From: Pseudomonas phage pPa_SNUABM_DT01
Sequence record: MW735835.1
Direction: 5' to 3' (one strand)
DNA length: 64,000 bases
How positions within the stretch are numbered: the first letter of the stretch is position 1; the number at the start of each line of letters is the position of its first letter. The position numbers and the translations under genes were made by a program. The notes beneath the pieces were generated by a model, which saw only the letters and a list, made by a program, of their open reading frames with translations, was not told the origin of the DNA and ran no database searches. Positions 6,831-62,672 of the stretch are shown here, one piece after another.

Positions 6831-7285
6831 CCCTAGCAATAGGAGAACACGTCGGAGACCGAAGCTTCGGCTTAAAGCAGATCGGCAATCGTGATGAGCC
6901 TTCGCACCTGGACAGAATCTTGGGTACCTACGACAAGACGCTGGACAGTATCCAAGCGGAGATCATCACGAGGGAGTGTTACGACGAGTACTTCGGCATT
7001 TACGCTCAGAGTACCCAAGGAGCTTCTCCTTGGGCTTTGGCCGCGATGCATGAGCCGGAAGACCTAGGTAAGGTGGACCCGTTCGATGTGTACCTTGAGC
7101 GATACTTGGTCGCCAACGTGCTGAAGTACACGGGAATCAACTTTCAAGATTTCATGAAGTTGCCCCGTGATCGAGCGGAAGCCATGTTGAAAAGGTGTGA
7201 CTCGTTGTCCTCGAAAGAAGACAGTGATGTGGCCAACCTCGTCAACGGGCGGAACGCCAAGCAACCGACGATGAAACCGAAATAA
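6782..7285 (+). CDS. Downstream -1 frame ORF (about 168 codons) with no in-frame ATG/GTG plus RBS until about 7048. Probably expressed as a C-terminal extension of 5226-6830 (fusion about 685 aa), or separated by a homopolymer error.
   Basis: Frame-2 coding continues from the slippery site (..RLRFFHPSRTEDQ..) with protein-like composition. The ORF track lists 6656-7285. Confidence 0.35.
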   Translation, partial: HPSRTEDQPSRRRGGVTLAIGEHVGDRSFGLKQIGNRDEPSHLDRILGTYDKTLDSIQAEIITRECYDEYFGIYAQSTQGASPWALAAMHEPEDLGKVDPFDVYLERYLVANVLKYTGINFQDFMKLPRDRAEAMLKRCDSLSSKEDSDVANLVNGRNAKQPTMKPK

Positions 7286-7316
7286 GGAGGAGGGGTTCGC
7301 CCCTCCTCTATTCCAT
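7285..7316 (+). terminator. Hairpin aggaggagggg-TTCG-cccctcctct followed by ATTCC (family member, weaker TATG-like tail)
   Basis: 11-bp GC-rich stem with UUCG tetraloop directly after the stop at 7285. Confidence 0.45.
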
Positions 7317-7364
7317 CTCACAGTGACGATACATTATCCAACTGTCTATCCATCGGAGTTCATC

Positions 7365-7871
7365 ATGTCTGATAAACGCAGTGGTATCGAGAAACTGACC
7401 AACCCGGAAGCACTTTTGCAGGGCTATTGGCAATCAGTGGTCCACCAGTACCGGGAAACCGATTACATTATCGTGGACGAGGACATCCGCGATATCGTCG
7501 CCAAGATCAACGAAGTTTCCGGGGTCTTGGTGACCGACTGCTGCGCCTCCCATCCGGAGCGTGAGCGTCATAACCTCTACCTGGCCTTCCTCCCAACCAC
7601 CGAAGGCTTTGATTTCCTCGCCGACCTGTATAACCACTTCGTGGGCCAGGTGTTGAACGAGGCAGTCATTGGTAATCTGGTCTCGCAGATCCAATTCCGT
7701 GTTCGTCATCGACAAGTCGATGTGAAATTCCAGGAGTGGGGCACCATTTGGAGCATCCGTCTCCCGGTGGACGATCAGAACGTGAAAGATCGTGCACTCA
7801 CCTGCCTCAGGAGGGCTGTTGACAATGCCATTGGAGATCTTAGACGAGAACCTGTGGGCGATCCAAGCTGA
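7365..7871 (+). CDS. Hypothetical protein (168 aa; the ORF track starts at GTG 7323)
   Basis: ATG at 7365 preceded by GGAG at -8. No motif recognised. Confidence 0.45.
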   Translation: MSDKRSGIEKLTNPEALLQGYWQSVVHQYRETDYIIVDEDIRDIVAKINEVSGVLVTDCCASHPERERHNLYLAFLPTTEGFDFLADLYNHFVGQVLNEAVIGNLVSQIQFRVRHRQVDVKFQEWGTIWSIRLPVDDQNVKDRALTCLRRAVDNAIGDLRREPVGDPS

Positions 7872-8286
7872 CACCCGCGTCATCACTGTCAACATGGTGG
7901 GTGCCATGGGTGCAGGAGTCGCCAGAACGGCCAGGAATACCATCCCTGGGCTGTACAAGCACTACCGCAAGATGATCACCCAGATCGAACCCACCCAGTT
8001 CATCACTTACCAACATGACGGCATCCGTTATTTGCTGATTCCCACGAAGCTGGATTGGCGAGACCCTTCGCCACGTGGGTTGGTGGTGCACAATTTCTGT
8101 AAACTGGTGGTCTTAGCCAACCGCCACCGCTTAGGCACCATCGTACTGCCGCCCATGGGGTGTGGGAACGGCCAGTTGGACTGGGAGAATGACATCCAGT
8201 ACCTCTACAAGTCGTTGTTGCCGTATCAAGAGACCAAGTTCATCGCCGCGTTAGGCGACATGAGGAGCAGGAATGGAAGGTCCTAA
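7825..8286 (+). CDS. Macro-domain-like protein (putative ADP-ribose binding/hydrolase)
   Basis: VNMVGAMGAGVARTA resembles the macro N-x-x-G-x-x-G-G-G-V-x-x-A-I motif. LPPMGCGNGQ resembles the second macro P-x-x-G-x-G-x-G element. AGGAGG lies about 12 nt upstream of ATG 7825. Confidence 0.4.
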   Translation: MPLEILDENLWAIQADTRVITVNMVGAMGAGVARTARNTIPGLYKHYRKMITQIEPTQFITYQHDGIRYLLIPTKLDWRDPSPRGLVVHNFCKLVVLANRHRLGTIVLPPMGCGNGQLDWENDIQYLYKSLLPYQETKFIAALGDMRSRNGRS

Positions 8287-9166
8287 TTACTTCCGCGATG
8301 CGTTCGGGTATTTCAAGCGAAAGACAGTGATCCCTGGGACCGATGGACTCGCCAATGCGATGCAGTCGGCCATCAAGGCTCACAAGTTCGTGTTGCCGGA
8401 AGGTGGGCGGGTGCTGGATAACGACTTGCGGGCTCTGCCTGACATCGTTCGTTTGCCGTACCCTACGTTGGTGCTCGAATATGCCTGCGAAGAAGACGTC
8501 CTCAGACCAATTGCTCAAGAGGCTGTTGACAAGGGCAGTGATGACGCCGAGATCCAGTTCATGCTCAAGGGCGGTTTCCGTCGAGACAAGCTGATCGTCA
8601 TCGCCATGCAGAAAGATGACAAGGACATCGACGTCTTTATCATCTTCCATTCCCCATTGCAGAACAACTGGGCTAGCCCGCCGTTCGAATGCACCATTCC
8701 GTCGAAAAAAGAAGAAGTGATGAACTTCCTTGATTCGGCTATCATCCCTGTTCGGGTTGAAAGTGACCATGGGATGTCGCAGGAATGGTTCCAGAAGATC
8801 GTCTGGGCCACCATGCAAGGACCTGTGCGTGCTATTTACGAGGTCGTTGAGGCGCTCTCGTTCAGTAACATCACGGAGATGGACATCCCTGCGAAGAAGA
8901 TGACCTTCACCGAAAGCCGGAAGAAGGCCTTGCCCTACGACAGCTACAAAGTGCTCGTGGTGGACAAGACTCAGAAGATCGTTGGTGCAGGGCGAAGCGA
9001 ACAACGAGCACCGGTGCAGCCTGGCGAGCGTCGTCAGAGCCGTGAGCACACCCGTCGAGGTCATGACCGTACCTATAAACGGTCCGGCAAGAAGATCTGG
9101 ATCAATCCCATGGTGATCAACGCCGGAGTGGGCGGAACGATCATCAAAGACTACTCAGTGAAATAG
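8273..9166 (+). CDS. Hypothetical protein (297 aa) with a basic C-terminal tail
   Basis: ATG with GAGGAG RBS. Overlaps the previous gene by 14 nt. Confidence 0.5.
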   Translation: MEGPNYFRDAFGYFKRKTVIPGTDGLANAMQSAIKAHKFVLPEGGRVLDNDLRALPDIVRLPYPTLVLEYACEEDVLRPIAQEAVDKGSDDAEIQFMLKGGFRRDKLIVIAMQKDDKDIDVFIIFHSPLQNNWASPPFECTIPSKKEEVMNFLDSAIIPVRVESDHGMSQEWFQKIVWATMQGPVRAIYEVVEALSFSNITEMDIPAKKMTFTESRKKALPYDSYKVLVVDKTQKIVGAGRSEQRAPVQPGERRQSREHTRRGHDRTYKRSGKKIWINPMVINAGVGGTIIKDYSVK

Positions 9167-9177
9167 GAGCGTCACCT

Positions 9178-9651
9178 GTGAAAGAGAAGAAACAAGTCCG
9201 TCTGGTCAACATCAGCAAAGCCCGCGTACAGAAGATCGATCCGAAGCTGCCATTGGTGTCCATCACCGACCGTTACAGCAACGGCGTCTCCATTCCGTAC
9301 AAGGATCAGCGCCCCTTGTTGCAACTGGAGTTCTTCCCGCGCGACCATGCGCCGGAGATCGCAGTCGAGCACTGCATGACCATCGAGCGCGCAGATCAGC
9401 TGATCAAGTTCGTCGAAGAGCAGCGTGAGGCCGGTGCTGAGGTGATCTACATCCACTGCACCGAAGGTCGTGTGCGCTCCTATTCGGTCTGTGCTGCACT
9501 GGAAAGCCTGCCGGGCTTCTACCATGACCACTCCGATGCCTGCATCAAAACGGGTATCCTGGACCGCTACACCTACAACCTCCTGGGTGATCGTTGCGAC
9601 GCTTACGACGAAGCCCGCTCGGCTGGCGCCGAAGAGGAAGCAGCCTCGTAA
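9178..9651 (+). CDS. Cys-based protein phosphatase (tyrosine/dual-specificity type)
   Basis: Signature HCTEGRVRS fits the HC-x5-R-[ST] P-loop. GTG start with taggagcg RBS. Confidence 0.55.
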   Translation: MKEKKQVRLVNISKARVQKIDPKLPLVSITDRYSNGVSIPYKDQRPLLQLEFFPRDHAPEIAVEHCMTIERADQLIKFVEEQREAGAEVIYIHCTEGRVRSYSVCAALESLPGFYHDHSDACIKTGILDRYTYNLLGDRCDAYDEARSAGAEEEAAS

Positions 9652-9909
9652 AAAAGTACCACGAGGGGATAGTGTATGCGAAATACGTTGGCACGCCGTG
9701 ATGCCAGCGCCCCTTTCGGATCGCCAGTCACGCGTGATCACATCCTCGGCCTCTCACGGCGGCGCGAGGACTGGTCACCGGCTGGCGATCCCCATACAGG
9801 GGACCTGTAGAGGGCTCTCTAACCCGTTCTCGCCGCCCGTACCCGTCCGTGGCACAATGGCGTGACTACGAGGTCCCCGCCTATCCTCAACCTCGGTAAG
9901 GATCTACCG

Positions 9910-10701
9910 ATGAAACAAGTCTACCTCGGCGTCAAAATCATCGTGGGCCAGCCCATGACTCGTGGTGCTTACAACGAGTACCGCGGATGGCAAACCCCGG
10001 AGCGTGAAAACGCTGAAGACGAAGGCTATCTGGTGGAATACCCGGACAGCGCGCCGAACCACCCGGACCATGCCGGGTACATCAGCTGGTCACCCAAGTC
10101 GGTCTTCGATAACAGCCACATCGCCCTTGGCGACGTGTCGAACTTCCCGCCCTTCGCCGTCCGTCTGATCGGCGAGCGCAACCAGCTGGCCAGCAACCTG
10201 GGCAAGCTGAAGACCTTCCTGGAAGGTGACGTTACCCACCTCAGTGAGCGTAACCTCGATCTGCTGAACCGTCAGGTACAGGCACAAGAAGTCCTGCTGG
10301 ACATCCTGAACCAGCGCCTGGATTCGGTTGACCTGGGCGTGAGCGTGTCCACTTCGGTTCGCGTCGAGCTGGACCTGGCCAACAACAACGCCAAAGACCT
10401 GATGGGTCTGGCAATTGCTGCTGGTGCTGAAGGTCAAGGCCCCACCGACGTCATCGTGGCACTCGAAGATGCCAAGATCGTCGATGCCGAGGGCAACGAG
10501 ATCGCCGACTCCAGCGTCGAGATCGAGAACCTGGTGCGTGGTTTCTCCGTGAGCGGCAACATCGGCGAGAACCTCTACGGTGTTGCAGTCTGCCGTGAGC
10601 GTTGCGTAGCCAACGTGCACAGCTCCTTCGTTGAAGAAGGCACCAAGCTGTCCCTGCTGGTCAAGATCGGCAGCCACAACCGCGCGCCAGCTTTCGCGTA
10701 A
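9910..10701 (+). CDS. Hypothetical protein (264 aa; the ORF track starts at 9862)
   Basis: ATG at 9910 with ggtaagga RBS. N-terminal domain YLGVKIIVGQPMTRGAYNEYRGW was not recognised. Confidence 0.5.
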   Translation: MKQVYLGVKIIVGQPMTRGAYNEYRGWQTPERENAEDEGYLVEYPDSAPNHPDHAGYISWSPKSVFDNSHIALGDVSNFPPFAVRLIGERNQLASNLGKLKTFLEGDVTHLSERNLDLLNRQVQAQEVLLDILNQRLDSVDLGVSVSTSVRVELDLANNNAKDLMGLAIAAGAEGQGPTDVIVALEDAKIVDAEGNEIADSSVEIENLVRGFSVSGNIGENLYGVAVCRERCVANVHSSFVEEGTKLSLLVKIGSHNRAPAFA

Positions 10702-10706
10702 ATCGT

Positions 10707-10760
10707 TACGGCCTCCGTAGATAGATATGTGAAACCACTATTCATCTTACGGAGGCTTTC
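10707..10760 (+). promoter_or_regulatory. Inverted repeat gcctccgta .. tacggaggc enclosing about 30 nt. The 3' arm contains the GGAGG Shine-Dalgarno of the small ORF at 10762.
   Basis: 9-bp perfect inverted repeat. The RBS is embedded in the stem. Confidence 0.35.
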
Positions 10761-10761
10761 G

Positions 10762-10938
10762 ATGTATCGCGTCCTGTCACTCGAAAAGATTCGCCAGCAA
10801 CAAACCCCCGAGGAACTGGAGAACAATCGCCAGAAGACCTTGGAAGCATGCGCTCGTTTCAAAGAGGCTCAAGAATCCTTGGAGAAGCTCTGTGCAGAAC
10901 GAGGCATCGAAGTGCCCGTGATGATGTGCGCTGCCTGA
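10762..10938 (+). CDS. Small hypothetical protein (58 aa, charged helical)
   Basis: ATG 7 nt after GGAGG. The ORF track lists 10729-10938. Confidence 0.4.
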   Translation: MYRVLSLEKIRQQQTPEELENNRQKTLEACARFKEAQESLEKLCAERGIEVPVMMCAA

Positions 10939-10939
10939 T

Positions 10940-11350
10940 GTCGGAGGCTCCCTAGACGTGGATGCGTTGCACGGCTTGCGTCCATTCATGTCAGGGGTGG
11001 TTCCCGGGGTACGGGGAGCCTCCACATTCTCAAGCCTGTACTCTGCCTATGGTATGTCGACCGAAGATTTCTTCCCTCGATGTGCTATGGCCCGAGACGA
11101 ACTGCGATTCAGGGGCGGTCCTGGCTTGAGAAAGGCTCCAGCTTCAACTGGAGTCGAGTCCCAACGAATTACGACAGCTCAAGGCGCTGCTGCGCTTGGA
11201 TTGGGAGATCCCGGTCGGCTGTCACCTGTTCGGAAAAGGCCCGGGTTAGCGGGCATCGGGCCAGCGGCAGCCTTTTGGCAGCGCGCGATAATGGCCGGCA
11301 GCCTACGTGGTAGCCATCCGCCGGCGCCCGGGCCTTTTCCACCTAGTTGT
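10940..11350 (+). ncRNA. GC-rich structured non-coding region upstream of the tRNA pair. Possible ncRNA or tRNA-processing leader.
   Basis: 14-bp perfect inverted repeat ggaaaaggcccggg (about 11231) with cccgggccttttcc (about 11327). 9-bp inverted repeat ggaggctcc/ggagcctcc (about 10944/11013). Hairpin ctccag-cttcaa-ctggag. Overlapping ORFs have antisense-like composition. Confidence 0.3.
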
Positions 11351-11426
11351 TCCGCGATAGCTCAGTTGGTAGAGCAGCAGACTGTTAATCTGTTGGTCCC
11401 TGGTTCGAGTCCAGGTCGCGGAGCCA
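11351..11426 (+). tRNA. tRNA-Asn (anticodon GTT), CCA encoded
   Basis: Manual cloverleaf: acceptor TCCGCGA/TCGCGGA, D-arm GCTC-AGTTGGTA-GAGC, anticodon loop CTGTTAA, T-arm CCTGG-TTCGAGT-CCAGG, discriminator G, CCA. Confidence 0.8.
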
Positions 11427-11435
11427 GCTTCACCC

Positions 11436-11512
11436 GGCTCCATAGTTCAGTTGGTTAGAATGCTAGCCTGTCACGCTAGAGGTCAGGGGTTCGAGTCCCC
11501 TTGGAGTCGCCA
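11436..11512 (+). tRNA. tRNA-Asp (anticodon GTC), CCA encoded
   Basis: Manual cloverleaf: acceptor GGCTCCA/TGGAGTC, anticodon stem CTAGC/GCTAG with loop CTGTCAC, T-arm AGGGG-TTCGAGT-CCCCT, discriminator G, CCA. Confidence 0.8.
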
Positions 11513-11529
11513 TTTTCACGGATACGATC

Positions 11530-11763
11530 ATGCACGATAGAATCGTTGAACTCGCCAACGCCCATGACGTCACCACCGCTGCTTTCGAAGCGCTCCTGAG
11601 TCAGGAGTTCTTGGCAAGAGTGAGTGTGTTCCATCGTCAGGCGAAGCATGTCACCGAAGTCATCAATCGTTTGCTGGTCGTGGTCCAAGGTGAGGAAACT
11701 CACTACATTGAACTCATGATGATCTTGATTGCTCCTGATCCGAAGTGGGTTCTCGCTCAATGA
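11530..11763 (+). CDS. Small hypothetical ORF (77 aa), weak RBS
   Basis: ORF-track entry directly after the tRNAs. Could instead be non-coding. Confidence 0.25.
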   Translation: MHDRIVELANAHDVTTAAFEALLSQEFLARVSVFHRQAKHVTEVINRLLVVVQGEETHYIELMMILIAPDPKWVLAQ

Positions 11764-11836
11764 GGACGTGGGGCCAGCCGGTACGGCAGTCGCTCTTGAT
11801 GCTTCTAGGAGTGGGTTCAATTCCCACCCGTCCTCA
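11762..11836 (+). pseudogene. tRNA-like element / degenerate tRNA
   Basis: Perfect 7-bp acceptor-like pairing GAGGACG..CGTCCTC plus canonical T-arm GTGGG-TTCAATT-CCCAC. D and anticodon arms do not fold canonically, and there is 1 extra nt between T-stem and acceptor. Confidence 0.3.
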
Positions 11837-12186
11837 ACCCATTCAAAGTTTCTGTTGTGCGGCGGCCGCTGTGCAACGGGATGCCGAGAGATAACTCTAG
11901 AAGGTCCAGAATCCGCCGTGGGAGGCAGACTTCCGACCTCTGGGGGCGATTGCAGTCGTCGTTCTCTTGGTTACAGTGCTAGGGACCATCCCGCCCGATA
12001 CGGTGCAAGGCTGCGACGAATTCCACAAACACGACTCCCTAGAGTGCACGCTAGAGGAGCAGCCGTACCTGAGGTCCATCCAGGTGGCGGTGTTGTAGTG
12101 TCACCCTGATGGACTGCTGTACGTTCTGGACTGGTTCCAGCCGCGGCACGTGACTACGGTAGAATAGCAACCGGTTCCGCCTCTGG

Positions 12187-12226
12187 CTGCCCGCTTGACC
12201 CTCGTTGGCGAGCGGGCAGTTATGCC
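12187..12226 (+). terminator. Hairpin ctgcccgct-(13 nt)-agcgggcag followed by TTATGCCG (hairpin+TATGCC family)
   Basis: 9-bp perfect stem. The downstream TATGCCG lies about 45 nt before the 12271 ATG. Confidence 0.4.
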
Positions 12227-12270
12227 GTTTCAACTACTTGGAACTGACTATAACAAGGACATCGGCCAAC

Positions 12271-12648: not shown

Positions 12649-12705
12649 CCATTTCATGAGGGGCGGCTGTCCGCCCTTTATGCCGTCACCCAAGGAGACT
12701 CATCT

Positions 12706-13616: not shown

Positions 13617-13624
13617 CATAAACG

Positions 13625-13660
13625 GGAGGGGTGCACCCCTCCCTTTCTTTTTGTTTTGAT
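13625..13660 (+). terminator. Rho-independent terminator gggagggg-TGCA-cccctccc plus TTTCTTTTTGTTTTG
   Basis: 8-bp GC stem followed by a T-rich tract. Confidence 0.65.
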
Positions 13661-13720
13661 TCGAATTATTTTCGACAATACATGATAGCGGTGAATATCC
13701 CCACCAATGTCTAAGGAGAC

Positions 13721-13978: not shown

Positions 13979-13987
13979 GGGATCGCC

Positions 13988-15163: not shown

Positions 15164-15170
15164 TCCGAAA

Positions 15171-15200
15171 AGAGAGGGGCTTCGGCCCCTCTTCTTTTGC
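15171..15200 (+). terminator. Terminator agagaggggc-TTCG-gcccctcttct plus TTTGCC
   Basis: 10-bp stem, UUCG tetraloop, T-run. Confidence 0.6.
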
Positions 15201-15227
15201 CGTTTGACCATAACCAGGAGAAAGCCA

Positions 15228-15644: not shown

Positions 15645-15650
15645 ACGGAT

Positions 15651-15668
15651 AGGGGACTTCGGTCCCCT
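15651..15668 (+). terminator. Hairpin aggggac-TTCG-gtcccct (no U-tract)
   Basis: 7-bp stem with UUCG tetraloop right after the stop. Confidence 0.4.
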
Positions 15669-15735
15669 CCCCCGTCAAGCCGACGAACGGTAATTGACAC
15701 GTAGCTGGGTTATGCTACAATTCAACTAAGGCCAC

Positions 15736-16014: not shown

Positions 16015-16029
16015 GAGCGGCACGAAAAT

Positions 16030-16072
16030 AAACCCAGGCCAAGACGGCCCGGGCTTTATTTTTTGTTTTGAA
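16030..16072 (+). terminator. Terminator cccaggcc-aagac-ggcccggg plus TTTATTTTTTGTTTTG
   Basis: Stem with one mismatch, followed by a long T-tract. Confidence 0.55.
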
Positions 16073-16117: not shown

Positions 16118-16723
16118 ATGAGATCTTTACTTATGGCGGGAGCCATGGTCAAGTCCGACATCAGAGGCAGTGTACTGTTCCAGACCAGTGGAACATTCAA
16201 ATGGAAATGTCCTGAAGGAGTCACCAAGGTATCGATAGCCCTTGTAGGTAGCGGTGGCTCTGGTTATTGGGAGAACCGTCAGATTGGTGCTGGCGGTAAC
16301 GTGCGGTTCGTCAACGACGTTCCCGTTGTTCCAGGTACAGAATACAACATCACCATCCCCAGTCAACGTGCAGCGAAGAACCTCAACGCCGATAACAGCA
16401 CCAGCGCTCTTGGCTATACGGCTAACTCTACGTTGTCCGCCACTGTACTGGGTGGTAACGGTCAACAACCACTCCAATCTCTTGGTAGCTCGATGCGAGC
16501 AGGCGGCGCGGTAGGTTATGTTGCCAGTGGTACCACTGGTCAAGGTATCAATCTCCTGACCTTCACTGCAACCGCCCCTTCCAGCGGTGGACGTTACGAT
16601 GGCCAAACCGCCGGCGGTGGTGGTGGCTACAATGGATCGAGTGCAGGTCTTGGTGCCGTGGGTGCCGTCCGCATTCTTTGGGGTAAAGGTAGAGCCTTCC
16701 CTTCCACCGATATTGTGGACTGA
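16118..16723 (+). CDS. Gly/Ser/Thr-rich protein (201 aa), possibly structural or fibre-associated
   Basis: Gly-rich segments GSGGSGY, GGGGGYNGSSAGLGAVGAV. AT-rich upstream leader. Confidence 0.45.
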   Translation: MRSLLMAGAMVKSDIRGSVLFQTSGTFKWKCPEGVTKVSIALVGSGGSGYWENRQIGAGGNVRFVNDVPVVPGTEYNITIPSQRAAKNLNADNSTSALGYTANSTLSATVLGGNGQQPLQSLGSSMRAGGAVGYVASGTTGQGINLLTFTATAPSSGGRYDGQTAGGGGGYNGSSAGLGAVGAVRILWGKGRAFPSTDIVD

Positions 16724-16760
16724 CAGCATAGAGCCCGGCATCTGCCGGGCTCTATGCTCT
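16724..16760. terminator. Bidirectional terminator between convergent genes: 15-bp perfect palindrome gcatagagcccggca-TCT-tgccgggctctatgc
   Basis: Sits exactly between the plus gene end (16723) and the minus gene end (16760). Confidence 0.6.
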
Positions 16761-18496: not shown

Positions 18497-18619
18497 TTCC
18501 TGAAACTGAGTGGAGTATATTGAAGGTGGTTATACAAATGGATATCGGGCCTTTGTAAGAATTTACGCCAATCTCTATGATTGGGTACTTACGCCAAGCC
18601 ACTTTTAAGAGACTCTGTC
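18497..18619. promoter_or_regulatory. AT-rich divergent promoter region between the minus exonuclease gene and the plus array
   Basis: gtatattgaaggtggttatacaaatggatat is AT-rich in a GC-rich genome and sits at a strand switch. Confidence 0.35.
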
Positions 18620-20373: not shown

Positions 20374-20380
20374 TCACACC

Positions 20381-20410
20381 GAGGGGAGCCTAGGCTCCCC
20401 TCGCTCTATG
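20381..20410 (+). terminator. Hairpin gaggggagc-CTAG-gctcccctc followed by GCTCTATGAG (hairpin+TATG family)
   Basis: 9-bp stem. TATG motif about 15 nt before the next ATG. Confidence 0.45.
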
Positions 20411-20421
20411 AGGACTGATCT

Positions 20422-21687: not shown

Positions 21688-21698
21688 CATGCAACATA

Positions 21699-21729
21699 CA
21701 GGGAGGGGCAGTTGCCCCTCCCTGTATGC
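21699..21729. terminator. Bidirectional hairpin cagggaggggca-GT-tgcccctccctg followed by TATGCC. Separates convergent genes.
   Basis: 12-bp palindromic stem between the plus gene end (21687) and the minus gene end (21732). Confidence 0.55.
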
Positions 21730-21731
21730 CG

Positions 21732-30104: not shown

Positions 30105-30143
30105 TCAACTGATCGCTGAGCGTCAAGCGTGCTGACCGGATAC

Positions 30144-30178
30144 CCGCCTGGCTTCGGCTGGGCGGGTGTCTTTTATTC
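30144..30178 (+). terminator. Terminator acccgcctggc-TTCG-gctgggcgggt plus GTCTTTTATT
   Basis: Stem with one mismatch, UUCG loop, T-rich tail. Confidence 0.55.
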
Positions 30179-30233
30179 CGTTTGAACGAATTCTATGGTG
30201 AATTGTCCACTCCATCTCTGAAGAGCATCTGTC

Positions 30234-32941: not shown

Positions 32942-32949
32942 TCCAAACA

Positions 32950-32981
32950 TAGAGGAGGGGTTCGCCCCTCCTCTATGCCGA
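32950..32981 (+). terminator. Hairpin atagaggagggg-TTCG-cccctcctctat followed by GCCG (stem 3' arm plus tail reads CTCTATGCCG)
   Basis: 12-bp perfect stem with UUCG tetraloop. Confidence 0.55.
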
Positions 32982-33025
32982 ATCGACTGATTTTATGACA
33001 AAGATCATCCACCCGGGGAATCCCC

Positions 33026-39200: not shown

Positions 39201-39232
39201 GAGGGGGCCTTCGGGCCCTCTCTATGCCCTCT
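39201..39232 (+). terminator. Hairpin gagggggcc-TTCG-ggccctctc followed by TATGCCC
   Basis: 9-bp stem with UUCG loop. Confidence 0.5.
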
Positions 39233-42324: not shown

Positions 42325-42357
42325 GAGTGGAGGGATGACCCCTCCACTCCTTTGCCC
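42325..42357 (+). terminator. Hairpin ggagtggaggg-ATGAC-ccctccactcc followed by TTTGCC
   Basis: 11-bp perfect stem. Confidence 0.5.
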
Positions 42358-43227: not shown

Positions 43228-44265
43228 ATGCATACCACTCAAACCACCCACCATCGTATCTTCGCTACCAATCTCGGCGGGTCTGTGCTCGACGATGTAA
43301 TGGCGGGCATTGGCGCAGACTTCACTGGTGACGCTGGGGTATTTGACCTCGTCATCGCTGAGGGGGACGACTTCTCGCTGGACACCGTCATCCGTGACAT
43401 GTTCCCAGCACGTCTGCTTCCTGACACCGCAGAAACCCCGTGGCACGTCGATCTGGGTGTCCTGGCTGAAAAGCTGGGCGAACTCTGCGAGCAGGAGGGC
43501 TACAAGCCTCAGACTGGCATGTTCACCCGCAAGTACTACGAGGACGGCGTCCAGGCTTCCTGTGACATCTCCTGCATCGAACTGATGGACCTGCTGATGG
43601 CTTTGGCGGGCAACCATTATAAGATCGAAGGTATCTACACCCAGTGGGCGATGCACAGCGACAAAGCGCAGTTTGGTGCTCACGCTGGTGGTACCCGCAT
43701 CACCACCCGCCACTTCTCGGTGCCGTGCTTCACTCCGCCGGATCGGGCAGAGACCGTGATCAAGACTCTGGCCAAGCACAAGCTGTGCGAAGTCGGCGAC
43801 TACTTCGTCAACGAGTTCATCAACCCGATCCTGGATTGTGTCCCGGAAGGTCCGATGCAGGGTGCAGTGGAGCGTGCTGCCATTCGTTTTATGGGTGGCT
43901 ATCGTGCACCGGTGTCCGAAGGCTTCCTGGCCAGTGTGTCTGAGCCTGCGGATAAGTCCGACGTGGCAGGAAACGAGGTGCCGGTGTTCGGTGGGGTCCC
44001 GATGGAGAAAACCGGTAAAGACTGGACCGTTCGTGATCTGGACTACTACCGTAACTGGAACTTCAGGCAGGTTGGCATCCTCTCTGGGATTTCGGTGACT
44101 GAGGAAGACGCCATCTTCTACATCGACTGGTTCGGTCTGAAACTTTCCGACTACCTGCACAATCAGCTGAAACTGCCAGCAGACTACGTGGCTACCGTCA
44201 AGGACATCCGTTCTCGTCTGCTCGCTGGTGAAGAACTCACCATCCCGAATCGCGAAAACAAGTGA
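43228..44265 (+). CDS. Hypothetical protein (345 aa; the ORF track starts at 43192)
   Basis: ATG with caatcggagaaacacc RBS. Confidence 0.5.
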   Translation: MHTTQTTHHRIFATNLGGSVLDDVMAGIGADFTGDAGVFDLVIAEGDDFSLDTVIRDMFPARLLPDTAETPWHVDLGVLAEKLGELCEQEGYKPQTGMFTRKYYEDGVQASCDISCIELMDLLMALAGNHYKIEGIYTQWAMHSDKAQFGAHAGGTRITTRHFSVPCFTPPDRAETVIKTLAKHKLCEVGDYFVNEFINPILDCVPEGPMQGAVERAAIRFMGGYRAPVSEGFLASVSEPADKSDVAGNEVPVFGGVPMEKTGKDWTVRDLDYYRNWNFRQVGILSGISVTEEDAIFYIDWFGLKLSDYLHNQLKLPADYVATVKDIRSRLLAGEELTIPNRENK

Positions 44266-46879: not shown

Positions 46880-46912
46880 AGGTCGGGATAACACCCGACC
46901 CTTTATTTTTGA
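46880..46912 (+). terminator. Terminator ggtcggg-ATAACAC-ccgacc plus CTTTATTTTTG
   Basis: Hairpin followed by a T-rich tract. Confidence 0.55.
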
Positions 46913-47100: not shown

Positions 47101-47177
47101 GTACCTTGTGTGCATCATCTATGACAAACACTCGGGCTGAGGACACATCCTCAGCCCACTATTCCGAGGTACCGGTA

Positions 47178-50594: not shown

Positions 50595-50596
50595 AC

Positions 50597-50630
50597 ATAG
50601 AGGGAGGCTTCGGCCTCCCTCTATGCCGTG
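50597..50630 (+). terminator. Hairpin atagagggaggc-TTCG-gcctccctctat followed by GCCG (reads CTCTATGCCG)
   Basis: 12-bp perfect stem with UUCG loop. Confidence 0.55.
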
Positions 50631-50688
50631 ACACAAGTGTTTTTGAACAAACCTGACCTATTCGATAGGTAACCAAGAGGATGCCGTC

Positions 50689-54537: not shown

Positions 54538-54541
54538 CGCT

Positions 54542-54808: not shown

Positions 54809-54810
54809 TT

Positions 54811-54993: not shown

Positions 54994-55009
54994 CGATAAG
55001 GAGAAAACA

Positions 55010-56047: not shown

Positions 56048-56067
56048 GCTACTCATAAGGAGTCTAA

Positions 56068-57378
56068 ATGGAAGTATTTCTGGTAGGTGGGTTTGTCCGG
56101 GATACACTTCTCGGACTCTCGCCGAACGATCGCGACTATGTCGTGGTTGGAGAAAGCCCAGAAAGCATGCTGGCGAAGGGGTTCACCCAAGTGGGTGGCC
56201 ACTTCCCGGTATTCTTGCATCCCGAAACCCAAGAAGAATATGCCCTGGCCCGGCAAGAGGTGAGCACCGGTGACGGTTACGGTGACTTCACCTATAACTG
56301 GGACGGGGTGTCGCTCGAGATGGACTTGAGCCGTCGTGATTTGACGATCAATGCCATGGCGATTGACACCAACGGTGAAGTGGTAGACCTGTTTGGAGGG
56401 GTAGCTGACCTCAACGCACGACTACTGCGGCACGTAGGTCCTGCATTCGTTGAAGACCCGTTACGGATCATGCGTGTGGCTCGTCTGTCTGCGGTATTGG
56501 GCTTCGACATCGCGTACGAAACCATGGCCCTCATGAAAGAAATGGTGGCCAAGGGCATGCTTCAGGCGTTACCGGGCGAACGCGTGTGGAAAGAGACTGA
56601 GAAGGCTCTGCTCAGCAAAGAACCGAGTCGGTATTTCAAGGTGCTGAAGGAATGCGGTGCTCTCCATGTCTGGTTCCCTGAACTGGACTTGATGGATCGT
56701 GTCCCGCAGCGTCCTGATTACCACGCTGAAGGCGATGTCTGGGTGCACACCCTGATGGTGCTGGATGAATCGGTGCCGCTGACCATGCATTTGGATCGTG
56801 AGCGTTGCTTGCGAGTGCGTTACGCCACGTTGACGCATGACTTCGGTAAGCTGGGCACACCGCAGAAGCTCTTGTGGGCAGATGACGGTGAGTTGCTGGG
56901 CAAACACCATGGTCATGAGGACCCAGATCGCTTTGGTCCGTTCCTGATGGCCTTCTCCAACCGGATTAAGGTGCCTACTCGCCTGCGTAAGTTCGCTCAT
57001 GTCGTGTCGGTCATTCATCAGAATGTCCACTCGATCAAGAAGATGTCTCCTAAGGGCCTGGTGTCGTTGTTCGACAAGGTCGGCGGTAACCGTTCCATTC
57101 GCGATGATGAATACTACCTGGAAGATCTCTCGATCGCCTGCTTGGCTGATAGCCTCGGTAGGCTGATAACCAAAGAAGATGGGTCGCTGGCTCAGATTCC
57201 CGGGTATCCTCAAGGCCAGTACTTCATCGACACCATGACACTCATCAACAACGTCGATGCTGGCGAGATCATGCAGAAAGAACTGGCCAAACGATGGCCG
57301 GTGAAGAAAGCACTGGAGAGCGTCCGGTCTGCTCGCAGTAAGGCAGTCGCTCCCTACGTCCGATCCCATAAATCTTAG
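56068..57378 (+). CDS. cca: tRNA nucleotidyltransferase (CCA-adding enzyme, class II) with C-terminal HD domain
   Basis: VGGFVRDTLLGLSPNDRDYVVVG. FPVFLHPETQEEYALARQE (near-identical to the E. coli Cca motif). RRDLTINAMAID. DPLRIMRVARLSAVLGF. HD signature YHAEGDVWVHTLMVLD. Confidence 0.8.
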   Translation: MEVFLVGGFVRDTLLGLSPNDRDYVVVGESPESMLAKGFTQVGGHFPVFLHPETQEEYALARQEVSTGDGYGDFTYNWDGVSLEMDLSRRDLTINAMAIDTNGEVVDLFGGVADLNARLLRHVGPAFVEDPLRIMRVARLSAVLGFDIAYETMALMKEMVAKGMLQALPGERVWKETEKALLSKEPSRYFKVLKECGALHVWFPELDLMDRVPQRPDYHAEGDVWVHTLMVLDESVPLTMHLDRERCLRVRYATLTHDFGKLGTPQKLLWADDGELLGKHHGHEDPDRFGPFLMAFSNRIKVPTRLRKFAHVVSVIHQNVHSIKKMSPKGLVSLFDKVGGNRSIRDDEYYLEDLSIACLADSLGRLITKEDGSLAQIPGYPQGQYFIDTMTLINNVDAGEIMQKELAKRWPVKKALESVRSARSKAVAPYVRSHKS

Positions 57379-57386
57379 GAGTCCGT

Positions 57387-57884: not shown

Positions 57885-58525
57885 TGAACCACTTTCTTAC
57901 TCGTCTGGAAGGTAAGCTGCTGGTAGTCCTTGAGACGAATCCCAGTGCTAACCTTCCATACCACAACAACGAACACATGAAACAGATGTGGGCGCTGGCC
58001 AGGACCATCTGGGAACGTGAGGAGGAAGATGTCGGTCTGGGCGATTCCACTTGGAACTACGTGGTGCTGATGTTCGCCTGCCTGTTCCATGATTGGGATC
58101 ATTCCGGTGGCCACGACTCCGATCACTACAACGTGCTCCGGGCTCGTGAGTTCGTCGAAGAGCTGATCGCCAAGAATGGTTACACCCTCCCGGGGCGTGT
58201 CATCAAGGCGATTGACGATGCGATCGCCGTGACCGAGTTCCCCTTCGTTATCCAGCCGAAGAATCGACTGGAAGCAGTGATTCGCGATGCGGACTCACTG
58301 TATGCCACTCATCGTCGCGACCCTACCGTCATCATTGACGGCTTGCGTCAAGAGATGGAAGTCAAGTTTGGCAATGCGATCTCTGACCAGCAGATGCTGG
58401 ACGGTCATATCGACTTCATGGCCAAGACCACCATGTTCACCAAAACCGCCCACGATATCTGGGCTGCCAACGCGCAGCCGTTCGTGGAAGACCTGAAACG
58501 CTACGTTAAAGAACGAGGTAATTGA
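57884..58525 (+). CDS. HD-domain metal-dependent phosphohydrolase (213 aa)
   Basis: H..H (NNEHMKQM) .. FHDWDH .. D pattern characteristic of the HD superfamily. ATGA-coupled. Confidence 0.5.
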   Translation: MNHFLTRLEGKLLVVLETNPSANLPYHNNEHMKQMWALARTIWEREEEDVGLGDSTWNYVVLMFACLFHDWDHSGGHDSDHYNVLRAREFVEELIAKNGYTLPGRVIKAIDDAIAVTEFPFVIQPKNRLEAVIRDADSLYATHRRDPTVIIDGLRQEMEVKFGNAISDQQMLDGHIDFMAKTTMFTKTAHDIWAANAQPFVEDLKRYVKERGN

Positions 58526-58830
58526 TGTCTACTCACCAGGTACGCAGCTACACCCTGAGCGGTGCTGCCATGGACGTGTTCACCAAGCTGTATCACAAAG
58601 GTCCGCAGGAAGACGGCGATCTGCCGAGCAAAGCCGGCATGACCGAATTGATCGATCTCGGCCTGGCCAAGAAAGACACCCGTCAAGACGGCATCAACAA
58701 GCTGACCAAACTCGGTGAGCATGAAGCGGGCGTGTACTTCACCCAAGTGGCCGTCAACAAGCAGCAAGAAGAAGCTGCTGCACGTGAAGCCGAGGAAGAG
58801 GATACCACCGATGAAGCAGAGCAGGCGTAA
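58525..58830 (+). CDS. Hypothetical acidic protein (101 aa)
   Basis: ATG overlapping the previous stop. The ORF track lists 58522. Confidence 0.45.
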   Translation: MSTHQVRSYTLSGAAMDVFTKLYHKGPQEDGDLPSKAGMTELIDLGLAKKDTRQDGINKLTKLGEHEAGVYFTQVAVNKQQEEAAAREAEEEDTTDEAEQA

Positions 58831-59107
58831 TTTCCTGCGGATGATCGGTGTAGGTGCAGGAGCGGCAATTGCCGCTCCTGTGTTTGCACTGGTCCCTGAA
58901 CCGCAGGTCGACTTGGCCGCCCTCGAAGCTGAGTATCATCAGAAGGTCCTTGACGATCTGCTGACCCGCATCCGTGAAGGCGTCTACGAACAGGTCCAGA
59001 ATAGCAACTACGAAACTGCCCTCGAAGCTGCTCGTGGTGACGCGTTTGCCAACATGCTCTTTCAGAACCGGGTGGTAACGCCCGATGAAGTTGGACTCTT
59101 CGTATAA
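58811..59107 (+). CDS. Small exported protein with twin-arginine (Tat) signal peptide (98 aa)
   Basis: MKQSRRNFLRMIGVGAGAAIAAPVFA: S-R-R-x-F-L motif, hydrophobic core, A-x-A cleavage-like site. The ORF track lists 58715-59107. Confidence 0.45.
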   Translation: MKQSRRNFLRMIGVGAGAAIAAPVFALVPEPQVDLAALEAEYHQKVLDDLLTRIREGVYEQVQNSNYETALEAARGDAFANMLFQNRVVTPDEVGLFV

Positions 59108-59137
59108 ACGCTCTAAGAGCACAACAAGGACTAAGAA

Positions 59138-59560: not shown

Positions 59561-59659
59561 TCCAAGCGTCCGAGGGGTAACTCCCTCGGACTGTATACCG
59601 CATTGGATTTTTCTTTGGTCCTACATTATCCAGCAGCACTAAGCTAAGGGGGTAACACC

Positions 59660-59938: not shown

Positions 59939-59967
59939 TTCACCCAGCAATCATCAGGAGATACCCC

Positions 59968-60306: not shown

Positions 60307-60659
60307 AAACGGCAGTAGATCTCCACGTGCGTGTGAAAAGTGTCTACCTTGCTTCCACGCACCATTATAAACGCCTGAAGGGAGGCAAACAACTCAGTCG
60401 TATTCGCCGTTGTGTGAAGGACGTTACAACCGAAGTCAGACCCAAGCAGGACGCTGTTAATGGCATCAACCTGATCATCGAAGTCCGTGATCGTCAATTC
60501 ACGGGTCGTCTGGAAGGTGTCCTGTGCAAGAAGACCGGTACCATCAGCTTCGCGGTTGTCGATTCCCAGATGTCCAGTTACCTGAAGAAGAAACGCTTCA
60601 ATGTAATTGGTTATGAACTCGAAGCCCGCCAAACCAACCTCAATCGCCGTAAAACGTAA
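60303..60659 (+). CDS. Hypothetical basic protein (118 aa), ATGA-coupled
   Basis: 4-nt overlap with the previous gene. Confidence 0.5.
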   Translation: MKTAVDLHVRVKSVYLASTHHYKRLKGGKQLSRIRRCVKDVTTEVRPKQDAVNGINLIIEVRDRQFTGRLEGVLCKKTGTISFAVVDSQMSSYLKKKRFNVIGYELEARQTNLNRRKT

Positions 60660-60670
60660 GAGAGATAACC

Positions 60671-60904
60671 ATGAGTGAGAACAAAAGCGCTGTAGATTTC
60701 ATCCTGGATCAGGCTGACCAGTTTGATCCGACCACCGTGCCCGGCTTTGAAGAGCGGGACAAGGCCGGTGAGTTCAAGAACAAGACCCCGTCCGAGATCC
60801 GCGAGATCCTCCTGAACGAAGCCGAGATGGAGGATTACAACCGCGAAGAGGCCGACGCCATGGAAGAAGAAGACCGTCGTAATGAGGAGCGCGATGATGG
60901 CTGA
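60671..60904 (+). CDS. Small acidic protein (77 aa)
   Basis: ATG with agagataacc upstream. Confidence 0.45.
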   Translation: MSENKSAVDFILDQADQFDPTTVPGFEERDKAGEFKNKTPSEIREILLNEAEMEDYNREEADAMEEEDRRNEERDDG

Positions 60905-61205
60905 GAAAGACGATCAGCTGGCTGAAGACCTGCGCGTACCTGTCGGCGGTTTCTCGGTCAGCACTCAGCTGAAAGCGCAGCTGTCCGGCGTCAAGAAGCT
61001 CCTGGAAACCGACTACTCCAAGTTCAAGGAGAAGAAGGCCTACAGGCTGAAGAAGATCCCGGACGCCGCCTACTTCATCAACTACATCGCCGTGTGCCCG
61101 AACAGCGGTCTGCCAATGGCCCTGGGCTTCACGGTGACCACCACTGGCTACGCTCCTCAGGCAATGCTGCTGAAGGACCTCAAACCGGAAGAAGTGTTCT
61201 TCTAA
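60894..61205 (+). CDS. Hypothetical protein (103 aa; the ORF track starts at 60882)
   Basis: ATGATG at 60894. Overlaps the previous gene by 11 nt. Confidence 0.45.
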   Translation: MMAEKDDQLAEDLRVPVGGFSVSTQLKAQLSGVKKLLETDYSKFKEKKAYRLKKIPDAAYFINYIAVCPNSGLPMALGFTVTTTGYAPQAMLLKDLKPEEVFF

Positions 61206-61214
61206 GGAGTTGTC

Positions 61215-61538
61215 ATGTCGCTGAAAGAAGACGATCCCTGGGCAGGGACGATCGACCTCACTCAGGCCAGTTTCGGGCGAGGGCGCGAGATCAAGGTCCA
61301 GTTGATGGTGGCGCACCAGTTGGCCACCATGGATTTCAGTGGTTTCAAGGCCAAGCACTGCTACCGGGTGCGTGGTCAAGAAGATGCTGTCTTCTACATC
61401 AACGAGATCCAGAAGCACCACGAATCGGCCATGCCGGAAGCCTGCGGGTTCTTGTGCATTCCCGGCTCCCTGAAACCTGCCCGTGTCATGCTCACTGAGT
61501 TGGGCGGGGAGGTGTTCATTGGTCCTTCCGTACTCTAA
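61215..61538 (+). CDS. Hypothetical protein (107 aa)
   Basis: ATG with ctaaggagttgtc RBS. Confidence 0.5.
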   Translation: MSLKEDDPWAGTIDLTQASFGRGREIKVQLMVAHQLATMDFSGFKAKHCYRVRGQEDAVFYINEIQKHHESAMPEACGFLCIPGSLKPARVMLTELGGEVFIGPSVL

Positions 61539-61569
61539 GCAGAAGCCATCTGTTGGTGGTCTGGCGCTG

Positions 61570-61782
61570 ATGGTTCCGGCCAACGACAACAAGCCAGACT
61601 TCGTCATCATTGGCGACCATACCAGGCTCTCCGTCAAGGCGTCTCTCTGGTTCAAGGTACGGGCAACCGTTCAGCACCAGTGGGCCTACGATCAACTCAA
61701 GAAGTTCGCTGAAGCGAATGAAATGAGTGAGCCGATCTTGGTCATCATCGATTACGACCACCAAGTCATCAAGCCGAAATAG
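61570..61782 (+). CDS. Small hypothetical protein (70 aa; the ORF track lists 61483-61782)
   Basis: In-frame ATG at 61570. Weak RBS. Confidence 0.3.
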   Translation: MVPANDNKPDFVIIGDHTRLSVKASLWFKVRATVQHQWAYDQLKKFAEANEMSEPILVIIDYDHQVIKPK

Positions 61783-61812
61783 AGGAGAGGCCTTCGGGCC
61801 TCTCCTTTTCAC
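61780..61812 (+). terminator. Terminator agaggagaggcc-TTCG-ggcctctcct plus TTTC
   Basis: 10-bp stem, UUCG loop, short T-run. Confidence 0.55.
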
Positions 61813-61829
61813 CATCGTGAGGGAACGAC

Positions 61830-62639
61830 ATGTACACTGCCAAGTCTTCAGGGATCGTGCAATACAACGCAAACGACAGTCGCGTTGAGATCCTGCGGCC
61901 GGTCAACGCATCGGAACGTGCAAACCCCGAATCCTTTTATCAGCTTGAGGAATTCCTCACTGGTACCGTGATCCAGATGGTCGCTACCAAGGACCTCAAT
62001 CACTTCCGCCAGCATGAGAACCTGCATGTCTGGGGTAAAGAACTCTACACCATGGAGATGTACGTCAACCTGCTACGAGATGTGCACCGCATGGTGATCG
62101 TTCATGGACCTAATACCGAAGTCTTCGGTCCACAACCAGATCAGGGCTTCATCATGAAGTCCATCGGCAACAAGATGCACGTCGGGATGCAAGTGACCAA
62201 CCAAGCGGTGTTAATGGCCTTGGACACGCACATCGCCGGTATCATGGCAGATGGCACTATCCTGCGTGAAGGGACGGTGTCTTCGTTTGACAGTTTCGTC
62301 GCAATGGCTCAGCAACGTGTCGATAACGCGTTATCAATCATCACCACGGAGGCTTCTGGCTGCTTGCGTCGACAATGGGACCAAGCTGCTGGGTTGGAGA
62401 TCCATGAGATCCAGCACTTCTACGTTCGCAACACGTCGACAGACTGGAAGGACTACCTCGACCTGCAACGGGTCATGGACATCCTCAACGTCTCGCACAC
62501 CACCATCAATCGTTACCGAGCTGGGCAAGTCCCTGCGGGTTGCGATCCCTTCCCCAAACCTGACCGCTTTCGTGGTCGGTCCCCGTACTGGCATAAGAAC
62601 ACCATCGATGGCTGGATCGTCCGCCGGGTAATGGAGTGA
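61830..62639 (+). CDS. Protein with C-terminal AlpA/Xis-like helix-turn-helix (269 aa), putative transcription regulator
   Basis: C-terminal LDLQRVMDILNVSHTTINRYRAGQVPAGCDPFPKPDRFRGRSPYWHKNTIDGWI parallels AlpA-family LRLPEVMRLTGLSRSTIYRLIKAGEFPKPIKLGARSVGWLESEIEEWI. Confidence 0.5.
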   Translation: MYTAKSSGIVQYNANDSRVEILRPVNASERANPESFYQLEEFLTGTVIQMVATKDLNHFRQHENLHVWGKELYTMEMYVNLLRDVHRMVIVHGPNTEVFGPQPDQGFIMKSIGNKMHVGMQVTNQAVLMALDTHIAGIMADGTILREGTVSSFDSFVAMAQQRVDNALSIITTEASGCLRRQWDQAAGLEIHEIQHFYVRNTSTDWKDYLDLQRVMDILNVSHTTINRYRAGQVPAGCDPFPKPDRFRGRSPYWHKNTIDGWIVRRVME

Positions 62640-62641
62640 TC

Positions 62642-62672
62642 GAGGGAGCCTTCGGGCTCCCTCTTATGCCGC
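62642..62672 (+). terminator. Hairpin gagggagcc-TTCG-ggctccctc followed by TTATGCCG
   Basis: 9-bp stem with UUCG loop. An AT-rich leader follows up to 62757. Confidence 0.5.

Follow-up and report, generated by a model that had tools for sequence, protein, structure and literature searches.

The 64,000-nt stretch of Pseudomonas phage pPa_SNUABM_DT01 analyzed here (record MW735835.1, one strand; referred to as the window) carries about 22 compact intergenic hairpins at the 3′ ends of genes, and directly 3′ of 12–14 of them stands a short box, TATGCCG or a near variant. We consider these elements to be factor-independent transcription terminators of a phiKZ-like jumbo phage, in which the box is the release zone of the transcript and not a promoter, and we put the probability of this reading at about 0.8. 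The module is already known from phages phiKZ and 201phi2-1; what appears to be new, from the sequences compared here, is its occurrence in a clade of high GC content. An initial annotation of the window had described the family as a fused terminator and phage-specific promoter. The terminator-like hairpins, the phiKZ-like genome and the frequent position of a promoter a few tens of nucleotides past the terminator agree with that description; the box as promoter does not.

Hairpins and boxes in the window

The hairpins of the catalogue are sense-oriented, begin 0–33 nt 3′ of stop codons and have folding free energies (ΔG) of −11 to −36 kcal/mol. All 12 hairpins of the initial annotation are present. 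Its remark that the loop is almost always TTCG fits most of them, with CTAG at 20381 and AGTT at 21699 as exceptions. UUCG loops cap 11 window hairpins, nine with perfect stems (at least 7 bp, at least 5 GC pairs) and two (39201 and 30138) with one G·U pair; no counterpart of the nine perfect TTCG-looped stems occurred in 100 dinucleotide shuffles or with the loop in the CGAA orientation. The stem is frequently prolonged as CATAGAG...CTCTATG, which places the TATG within the descending arm, paired with an upstream CATA.

The sequence 3′ of the stem is TATGCCG in six cases (12221, 12679, 21725, 32974, 50622, 62665), TATTCCG in two (30174, 47160), TTTGCCG/C in two (15196, 42351), and TATGCCC (39223), TATGCT (16753), TATTCCA (7309) and TATACCG (59594) in one each. 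The TATGCCG, TATGCCC and TATGCT copies other than 12679 had been listed before, together with a box at 20407 that reads TATGAGG and not TATGCC. A U-tract (at least 5 U in 8 nt) follows 4–5 of the roughly 22 stems (13644, 16055, 46902, 49956 and partly 61806), as expected from the earlier statement that only some have one. The next gene generally lies 20–100 nt downstream, again as described, except at 16753 and 21725, which are situated at convergent gene junctions.

The elements are listed below with their predicted roles. Expectation (E) values refer to a covariance model, CM R1, which was trained on 16 instances from the clade of the window phage and on none from phiKZ, and which recovers the listed sites in the window, mostly on the + strand. 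Designations of the type L043 denote individual relatives.

7286–7315 (+): hairpin GGAGGAGGGG-TTCG-CCCCTCCTCT with TATTCCA; ΔG −19.3 kcal/mol; adjoins the stop codon at 7285; relatives show a covarying stem with TATTCC or TATTCG as the tail; window model match E = 0.0036
12189–12227 (+): hairpin GCCCGCT...AGCGGGC with a 15-nt loop, then AG-TTATGCCG; closes a tRNA-containing region poor in open reading frames (ORFs); GTTATGCCG kept in 6 relatives, with covarying stems
12655–12685 (+): hairpin CATGAGGGGCGG-CTGT-CCGCCCTTTATG with TATGCCG (TTTATGCCG at 12679); E = 2e-4; absent from the initial annotation
13624–13657 (+): predicted canonical intrinsic terminator, GGGAGGGG-TGCA-CCCCTCCC then TTTCTTTTTGTTTT; conserved in relatives; in L019 the site holds TATGTCCG and a U-run
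15168–15202 (+): TTCG hairpin with A-tract/U-tract extension and TTTGCCG; E = 5e-5
15651–15668 (+): TTCG hairpin AGGGGAC-TTCG-GTCCCCT with neither box nor U-tract; another hairpin at the same site in relatives
16025–16069 (+): predicted canonical terminator with U-tract TTTATTTTTTGTTTT and an A-tract upstream; kept in 5 relatives
16725–16759 (both strands): predicted bidirectional terminator AGCATAGAGCCCGGC-ATCT-GCCGGGCTCTATGCT between convergent genes; ΔG −31.1 kcal/mol; CTCTATGCT on either strand
20380–20413 (+): hairpin CGAGGGGAGC-CTAG-GCTCCCCTCG then CTCTATGAGG; YTATGAGG kept in 8 relatives; ambiguous; Shine-Dalgarno sequence of gene 20422 overlapped by the TATG
21692–21731 (both strands): predicted bidirectional terminator CATACAGGGAGGGGC-AGTT-GCCCCTCCCTGTATG at a convergent junction; ΔG −31 to −36 kcal/mol; model matches on both strands; TATGCCG on the + strand (21725–21731), TATGTTG on the − strand (21698–21692)
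30138–30180 (+): TTCG hairpin (one G·U pair) then TTTTATTCCG; ΔG −27 kcal/mol; absent from the initial annotation
32948–32980 (+): hairpin CATAGAGGAGGGG-TTCG-CCCCTCCTCTATG with TATGCCG; covariation in 9 orthologues; E = 4e-7
39201–39229 (+): TTCG hairpin (one G·U pair) with TATGCCC
42325–42357 (+): hairpin GAGTGGAGGG-ATGAC-CCCTCCACTC with TTTGCCC; TTTATGCCC at the same site in L043 and L044
44273–44301 (+): hairpin GATAGAGGGAC-TTCG-GTCCCTCTATC with degenerate tail TATCATT
46881–46910 (+): predicted canonical terminator GGTCGGG-ATAACA-CCCGACC then CTTTATTTTT
47134–47166 (+): hairpin GGGCTGAGGA-CACA-TCCTCAGCCC then AC-TATTCCG; conserved with covariation in L043
49932–49965 (+): TTCG hairpin with U-rich tract CTTCCTTTTCTTTT
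50596–50628 (+): hairpin CATAGAGGGAGGC-TTCG-GCCTCCCTCTATG with TATGCCG; covarying stems in L042–L045; E = 3e-9
59568–59600 (+): hairpin GTCCGAGGG-GTAACT-CCCTCGGAC then TG-TATACCG; in L045, CTTTATACCG after a related hairpin
61783–61813 (+): hairpin AGGAGAGGCC-TTCG-GGCCTCTCCT with short U-run TTTTCACC; E = 3e-6
62642–62671 (+): hairpin GAGGGAGCC-TTCG-GGCTCCCTC then T-TATGCCG; top model match, 46 bits

Over the whole window, TATGCC is not enriched (18 copies, 15.4 expected). Sense-strand intergenic DNA shows a different picture, with 31 copies of TATG against 4.9 expected and six of TATGCCG against 0.14; hairpin followed by box occurs 12 times on the + strand, where 200 shuffles gave 1.5 on average and 6 at most. 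The intergenic enrichment that the initial annotation had called for is present. Inside coding sequences TATG is 2.3-fold depleted (49 copies against 114 under synonymous-codon shuffling, z = −8), the strongest depletion among twelve motifs tested, ten of them tetranucleotides. Its complement CATA is depleted 2.1-fold (21 against 44), and related TA-containing tetramers less so. Such depletion is in keeping with a strong polymerase signal but does not tell a promoter from a terminator role.

A further hairpin at 58847–58890 (+; ΔG −31.8 kcal/mol, 20 bp, loop AATT) has neither box nor U-tract; it lies 16 nt past the stop codon of 58525–58830 and overlaps a weak ORF call at 58811–59107. The ORF-poor 2.6 kb (9652–12270) that closes with hairpin 12189 and TTATGCCG surrounds Asn and Asp tRNAs (11351–11512), near which relaxed ARAGORN settings revealed a third candidate, Lys-CTT (11764–11835, +), missed by Rfam and by default ARAGORN. 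This region may be an operon of tRNAs and non-coding RNAs.

Conservation among relatives of the phage

The window has a GC content of about 55% and holds about 86 genes by self-trained gene calling, nearly all on the + strand from 4818 onward. PHROG matches comprise a split multisubunit RNA polymerase (RNAP) β subunit (E = 7e-129), a phiKZ-type DNA polymerase and internal head proteins, as well as virion proteins, ThyA and a CCA-adding enzyme; on the basis of the RNAP, DNA polymerase and internal head protein matches, the gene content identifies the phage as phiKZ-like (Chimalliviridae-type). Megablast with 12 kb of the window found no DNA-level match among deposited phages, and relatives were therefore sought via proteins. 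By tblastn the closest deposited phages were Xanthomonas, Klebsiella and Ralstonia jumbo phages with protein identities of at most 38%; IMG/VR supplied relatives of 254–277 kb with 68–87% amino-acid identity. The anchor proteins 43228–44265 and 56167–57378 yielded no syntenic relatives, and comparative coverage is thinner in the right-hand third of the window (none for 61783; only an element-only match at a non-orthologous site for 62642). Clade counts given below refer to a pool of 532 kb from the clade of the window phage.

At the convergent junction 21695, compensatory (double) changes are found in 7 of 15 stem pairs across 10 orthologous sequences, while the four outer CATA/TATG pairs are invariant (10/10) and all 10 relatives carry the box on both strands. 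At other orthologous junctions the upstream CATA is frequently missing and the post-stem TATG or TATK is retained. Box variants interchange at one and the same site: TATTCCG, TATGCCG, TATGCTG or TATGTTG at 30138, and TTTGCCC or TATGCCC at 42325. This interchange covers the degeneracy of the published TTATKYYG consensus. The hairpin at 39201 and its TATGCCG or TATGTCG remain with the upstream gene in 7 relatives, and the sequence downstream of the box diverges. Canonical U-tract forms replace box forms at equivalent positions (13624, 16025, 46881).

In the pool, the box accompanies 62 of the 165 sense intergenic hairpins and is present in 26 of 41 strand-views of convergent junctions; among 501 hairpins within coding sequences, only 4 have it. 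By a strict hairpin test, 54 of 86 intergenic TATGYYG copies are hairpin-bound, compared with 15 of 192 TATG-purine copies; a loose RNAfold criterion gave 93% for TATGYYG with a baseline of about 50%, and the strict criterion is the one we trust. The tail logo of the clade reads Y Y T A T G/T C/T C/T G T. Hairpin-bound TATG is preceded by conserved Y−5 and Y−4 and followed by conserved C+2, C+3, G+4 and T+7, whereas the flanks of free TATG (n = 93) hold no information. We also considered that the tail of this GC-rich clade might have lost its U-richness, which is not clearly so (T fraction 0.44, against 0.52 in phiKZ). Outside the clade, all 13 distant phiKZ-like contigs examined (GC 0.44–0.58) have a hairpin followed by YTATGYYGT, at 15–46% of strong hairpins versus 2.6–7.8% of background windows. 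From this comparison across GC contents, it is TATG-YYG that is conserved within the published "TTAT region".

These data bear on the view that the elements act at the level of DNA, as dispersed palindromes resembling repetitive extragenic palindromes (REP) or miniature inverted-repeat transposable elements (MITE), or as binding sites of a dimeric protein, in either case unrelated to transcript ends. Many of the elements are indeed near-perfect palindromes (CATAGAGG...CCTCTATG), and about 20 similar copies occur in 64 kb. The asymmetric loop, however, is strand-specific relative to genes, with 46 TTCG and no CGAA loops in sense intergenic hairpins of the pool; orthologous stems covary rather than keep their sequence; the elements lie without exception at the 3′ ends of genes, and their tail is asymmetric, CCG being on the sense side; and the homologous elements of phiKZ hold mapped RNA 3′ ends. 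We regard a DNA-level role as the least probable of the explanations considered here.

The gene at 16145–16723, located between two elements of the catalogue, has a weak coding score and is absent from relatives L013–L016 and L021, in which the terminator at 16025 abuts the DNA polymerase gene. This inserted gene carries its own predicted bidirectional terminator (16725–16759).

Transcript ends in phiKZ

In phiKZ, 61 terminators mapped by ONT-cappable-seq share the motif BCCYCCCCHWWDGGGRRGGBYTTATKYYGT, a hairpin followed by the "TTAT region" (Putzeys et al. 2024, Microlife, PMC10914365), and motif A of the 201phi2-1 terminators is the same motif (PMC11512511). The elements of the window are identical to it in kind: in the 100 kb of phiKZ that we inspected, the hairpins have the layout cataaa-GCCYCCC-TTCG-GGGRGGC-TTTATGYYGT with CATA/TATG pairing, as in the window, and convergent junctions carry TTATG on either strand. 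CM R1 applied to these 100 kb returned the mapped terminators T065, T046 and T021 as its top three matches, and at E ≤ 1, 9 of 15 matches were mapped same-strand transcription termination sites (TTSs), where chance would give about 0.8% per match.

Transcription start sites (TSSs) and TTSs of phiKZ were taken from Tables S3/S4 of bioRxiv 10.1101/2023.10.13.562163; 46 of 133 TTSs and 55 of 149 TSSs were mapped onto the sequence, and TSS contexts were read for P001–P126. The TTS lies 1–8 nt past a hairpin in 35 of the 46 cases, with a mode of 4–5 nt. At box (TATK) terminators, the 3′ end falls at −1 to +2 of the K base in 14 of 18, so that the RNA ends in ...UAU, ...UAUGY or ...UAUGYY. No TSS coincides with any of the 46 TTSs. 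For eight of these, a distinct TSS occurs 10–47 nt downstream on the same strand (3 early, 1 middle and 4 late). As RNA 3′ ends lie in the box and no late TSS among P001–P126 is at its G, we take the box to be a release zone rather than a promoter; by analogy, the TATGCC box of the window is most likely the place of transcript release.

The same 3′ ends near UAU|G could also mark cleavage. The elements would then serve RNA stability or processing: transcription would read through, an endonuclease would cut at UAU|G, and the 3′ stem-loops would block exonucleases. Protection of RNA 3′ ends is a classic role of extra-stable C(UUCG)G hairpins, and a few hairpins lack a tail (15651, 50298, 53444). 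Against processing speak the distance from stem to 3′ end in phiKZ, which is the spacing of intrinsic termination, and the classification of some of the hairpin-associated TTSs (many others are not so called) as intrinsic by ARNold in Table S4. Further points are the swapping of U-tract versions with box versions at equivalent positions and the bidirectional symmetry at convergent junctions, which suits termination. We consider processing as the sole function very improbable, although termination and RNA protection or processing are not mutually exclusive and can coexist.

Release zone or promoter

Ceyssens 2014 is said to have given the late promoter of phiKZ as T−3ATG+1. This core, with G as +1, is otherwise devoid of conserved sequence (Yakunina 2015, PMC4666361; PMC7598289), and a pocket in the core β-like subunit gp123 recognizes its TATG in the non-template strand (PMC12809450). 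The initial annotation had stated, correctly, that late promoters of the phiKZ type centre on TATG, which would fit its proposal that the box following many of the hairpins is a promoter fused to the terminator. The TATG of the box would then be the T−3ATG+1 start for the non-virion RNAP, and a single box would possibly provide both release and start. The window RNAP subunit shows no BLASTP similarity to gp55 or gp123 of phiKZ; it is a different subunit, and the window is uninformative on a gp123-type pocket.

The match with an experimentally defined promoter core speaks for this proposal, as does the location of most boxes 18–120 nt upstream of a same-strand gene. Moreover, the late TSSs P049 and P075 of phiKZ lie only 5–11 nt past a terminator stem. 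Both, however, use a second TATG, and no late TSS among P001–P126 is located at the G of a hairpin-attached box. P006, P016, P054 and P078 start 20–42 nt downstream of a terminator, and P119L, the model late promoter, is situated in a divergent region and has no hairpin upstream. At convergent junctions both strands retain the box, each copy directed into the 3′ end of the facing gene, where a promoter would yield antisense RNA only; since no promoter is needed there, its presence disfavours a promoter role. Finally, the spacers that follow hairpins 30138 and 32948 hold a better conserved free TATG (30194, 32994) 20 nt downstream of the box, and the flanks of the two kinds of TATG differ, being CCG in the hairpin-bound and purine-rich or uninformative in the free kind. 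Fusion of terminator and late promoter in one box is thus improbable in our estimate; some boxes may have a minor, secondary promoter activity in addition to termination.

Several points weigh against the assignment of the elements as terminators with a release box. Most stems of the window have a G-rich 5′ arm, which reverses the polarity of the published phiKZ consensus. At 12655, 39201, 12189 and 50596 (boxes 12679, 39223, 12221 and 50622), no further TATG stands between the box and the next start codon, and those boxes may have a promoter role. The T fraction of box-type tails is about 44%, the standard intrinsic-terminator rule (at least 5 T in 8 nt) picks out a minority of the sites, and the hairpins 15651, 50298, 53444 and 44273 have no recognisable tail. 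Termination at the sites of the window phage and its close relatives is deduced from homology with phiKZ, and covariation among paralogous copies in the single-geometry instance set (A4) is biased by the selection of instances and was not used as evidence. As to the polarity of the stem, mapped phiKZ terminators with a G-rich 5′ arm exist (T016, T046, T065), and polarity is probably a property of the MEME consensus and not a functional requirement.

According to the terminator model that we favour, polymerases reaching the end of a gene or operon would transcribe the element, and the nascent RNA would fold into a highly stable GC stem, usually with a C(UUCG)G cap. The phage multisubunit RNAP would release the transcript a few nucleotides on, in the tail YY-UAUG-YYG(U) (in DNA CTCTATGCCG or TTATGCCG; module hairpin plus TTATGTTGT). 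The acting enzyme is presumably the phage non-canonical multisubunit RNAP and not that of the host. The tail would substitute for the bacterial U-tract and be constrained in sequence beyond its composition. Pairing of an upstream CATA(G/A) with (C/T)TATG would make the element symmetrical, able to stop polymerases from either direction, and in this form it would be used at convergent junctions. Promoters would be separate, typically 20–40 nt past the box, and belong to a free TATG-purine class or to a TACATTAT/TACATGAT class, resulting in spacers with terminator first and promoter second.

Promoter-like elements and other signals near the probable terminators

The following elements with a free TATG are promoter-like:

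18565–18584 (+): ACGCCAATCTCTATGATTGG, TATG at 18576, in a divergent intergenic region without hairpin; kept in 9/11 relatives; 41 nt before gene 18620
30187–30204 (+): CGAATTCTATGGTGAATT, TATG at 30194; identical in 10/10 relatives; TATG 20 nt past the box; start codon of an internal-head-protein gene 37 nt further on
32987–33008 (+): CTGATTTTATGACAAAGATCAT (GATTTTATGWCAAAGATCAT), TATG at 32994; near-invariant in 9–10 relatives; TATG 20 nt past the box; start codon 29 nt further on
47112–47128 (+): CATCATCTATGACAAAC (ATCTATGACAAAC), TATG at 47120, upstream of hairpin 47134; kept in L043

Of these, 30187–30204 is a putative late promoter and 32987–33008 a putative promoter, and the free TATG-purine elements (30194, 32994, 18576, 47120) are credible as better late-promoter candidates than the boxes. 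As 47112–47128 precedes it, hairpin 47134 with its TATTCCG would be a terminator inside a 5′ leader, resembling the terminators in 5′ untranslated regions of phiKZ; the arrangement at 47112–47166 could be an attenuator.

Two of these elements, 32987–33008 (TGATTTT-ATGACA-AAGATCA) and 18565–18584 (CCAATC-TCTAT-GATTGG), are imperfect palindromes about the TATG, which may point to binding of a dimeric regulator, or to a structure prone to melting, at the candidate promoters. A second promoter-like class, GATTCGAAT..TTTTCGACAATACATGATAGCGGTG and CGATACATTATC, is found at 13658–13692, 7330, 38070, 59622 and 42707, conserved in relatives 25–35 nt past terminators; these may be early or middle promoters. 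GTGACACAAGTGTTTTTGAACAAACCTGACCTAT (50629–50670) adjoins the terminator at 50596, is highly conserved in L042–L045, and could be a promoter, operator or leader. Hairpin 15651 is followed by a near-consensus sigma70-type promoter at 15694–15721 (+; TTGACA, 16-nt spacer with TG, TACAAT; 11/12 matches) that is kept in five relatives. Phages of the phiKZ-like family are thought to transcribe without the host RNAP, and a sigma70-type promoter is unexpected there.

A possible shared TATG signal and significance

The TATG common to the late-promoter core and the release zone suggests a shared recognition step by the polymerase core, which we put forward as a hypothesis and not as a result. The polymerase would respond to TATG as the same signal in two places, at late promoters and at terminators. 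The elongating RNAP would re-engage the non-template TATG 0–4 nt past the hairpin and pause when the hairpin has just formed; this sequence-specific pause, and not a U-tract, would drive release, with transcripts ending between UAU|G and UAUGYY. In a stronger version, the released polymerase would re-initiate at the same G. A shared signal, if true, would explain both the invariance of TATG after hairpins in phages of 37–58% GC and its avoidance inside genes. We hold the idea to be tentative and rather unlikely, yet it is a testable hypothesis on termination by the non-canonical RNAPs of jumbo phages, a process for which we found no biochemical study in the literature searched.

Most of the sites escape standard terminator finders, since their tail differs from a U-tract. 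A model of the form hairpin plus YTATGYYG would delimit transcription units in uncultivated Chimalliviridae-like genomes and prevent mis-annotation of the box as a promoter.

Comparison with known systems

The window elements most closely resemble the terminator motif of phiKZ and 201phi2-1. They share with it a GC stem-loop just past the gene, often with a TTCG loop, a YY-TAT-K-YY-G-T tail, CATA-TATG pairing, bidirectional copies at convergent junctions and a separate promoter often 10–47 nt on. They differ in the composition of the genome (about 55% GC in the window, 37% in phiKZ), in the first T of TTAT, which is often C in the window (CTATG), in YY, which is mostly CC as opposed to TT/CT, and in the 5′ arm, usually G-rich (GAGGGG...CCCCTC) where that of phiKZ is C-rich.

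With the phiKZ late promoter the box has in common the tetranucleotide TATG, an intergenic location upstream of genes, and the avoidance of TATG inside the window genes. The promoter, however, has no hairpin and no conserved flanks, whereas the window box is hairpin-bound with YY/CCG flanks and occurs at convergent junctions; in phiKZ itself, the hairpin-attached box corresponds to 3′ ends and not to 5′ ends.

Bacterial intrinsic terminators with UUCG loops likewise have a stable GC hairpin, frequently closed by a C(UUCG)G loop, with release a few nucleotides past the stem, and their A-tract/U-tract symmetry permits bidirectional use; four or five window copies (13624, 16025, 46881, 49932) are fully canonical in form. 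Most window copies, in contrast, lack a tract of at least 5–6 U and have instead UAUG-YYG, which is kept across phages of 37–58% GC.

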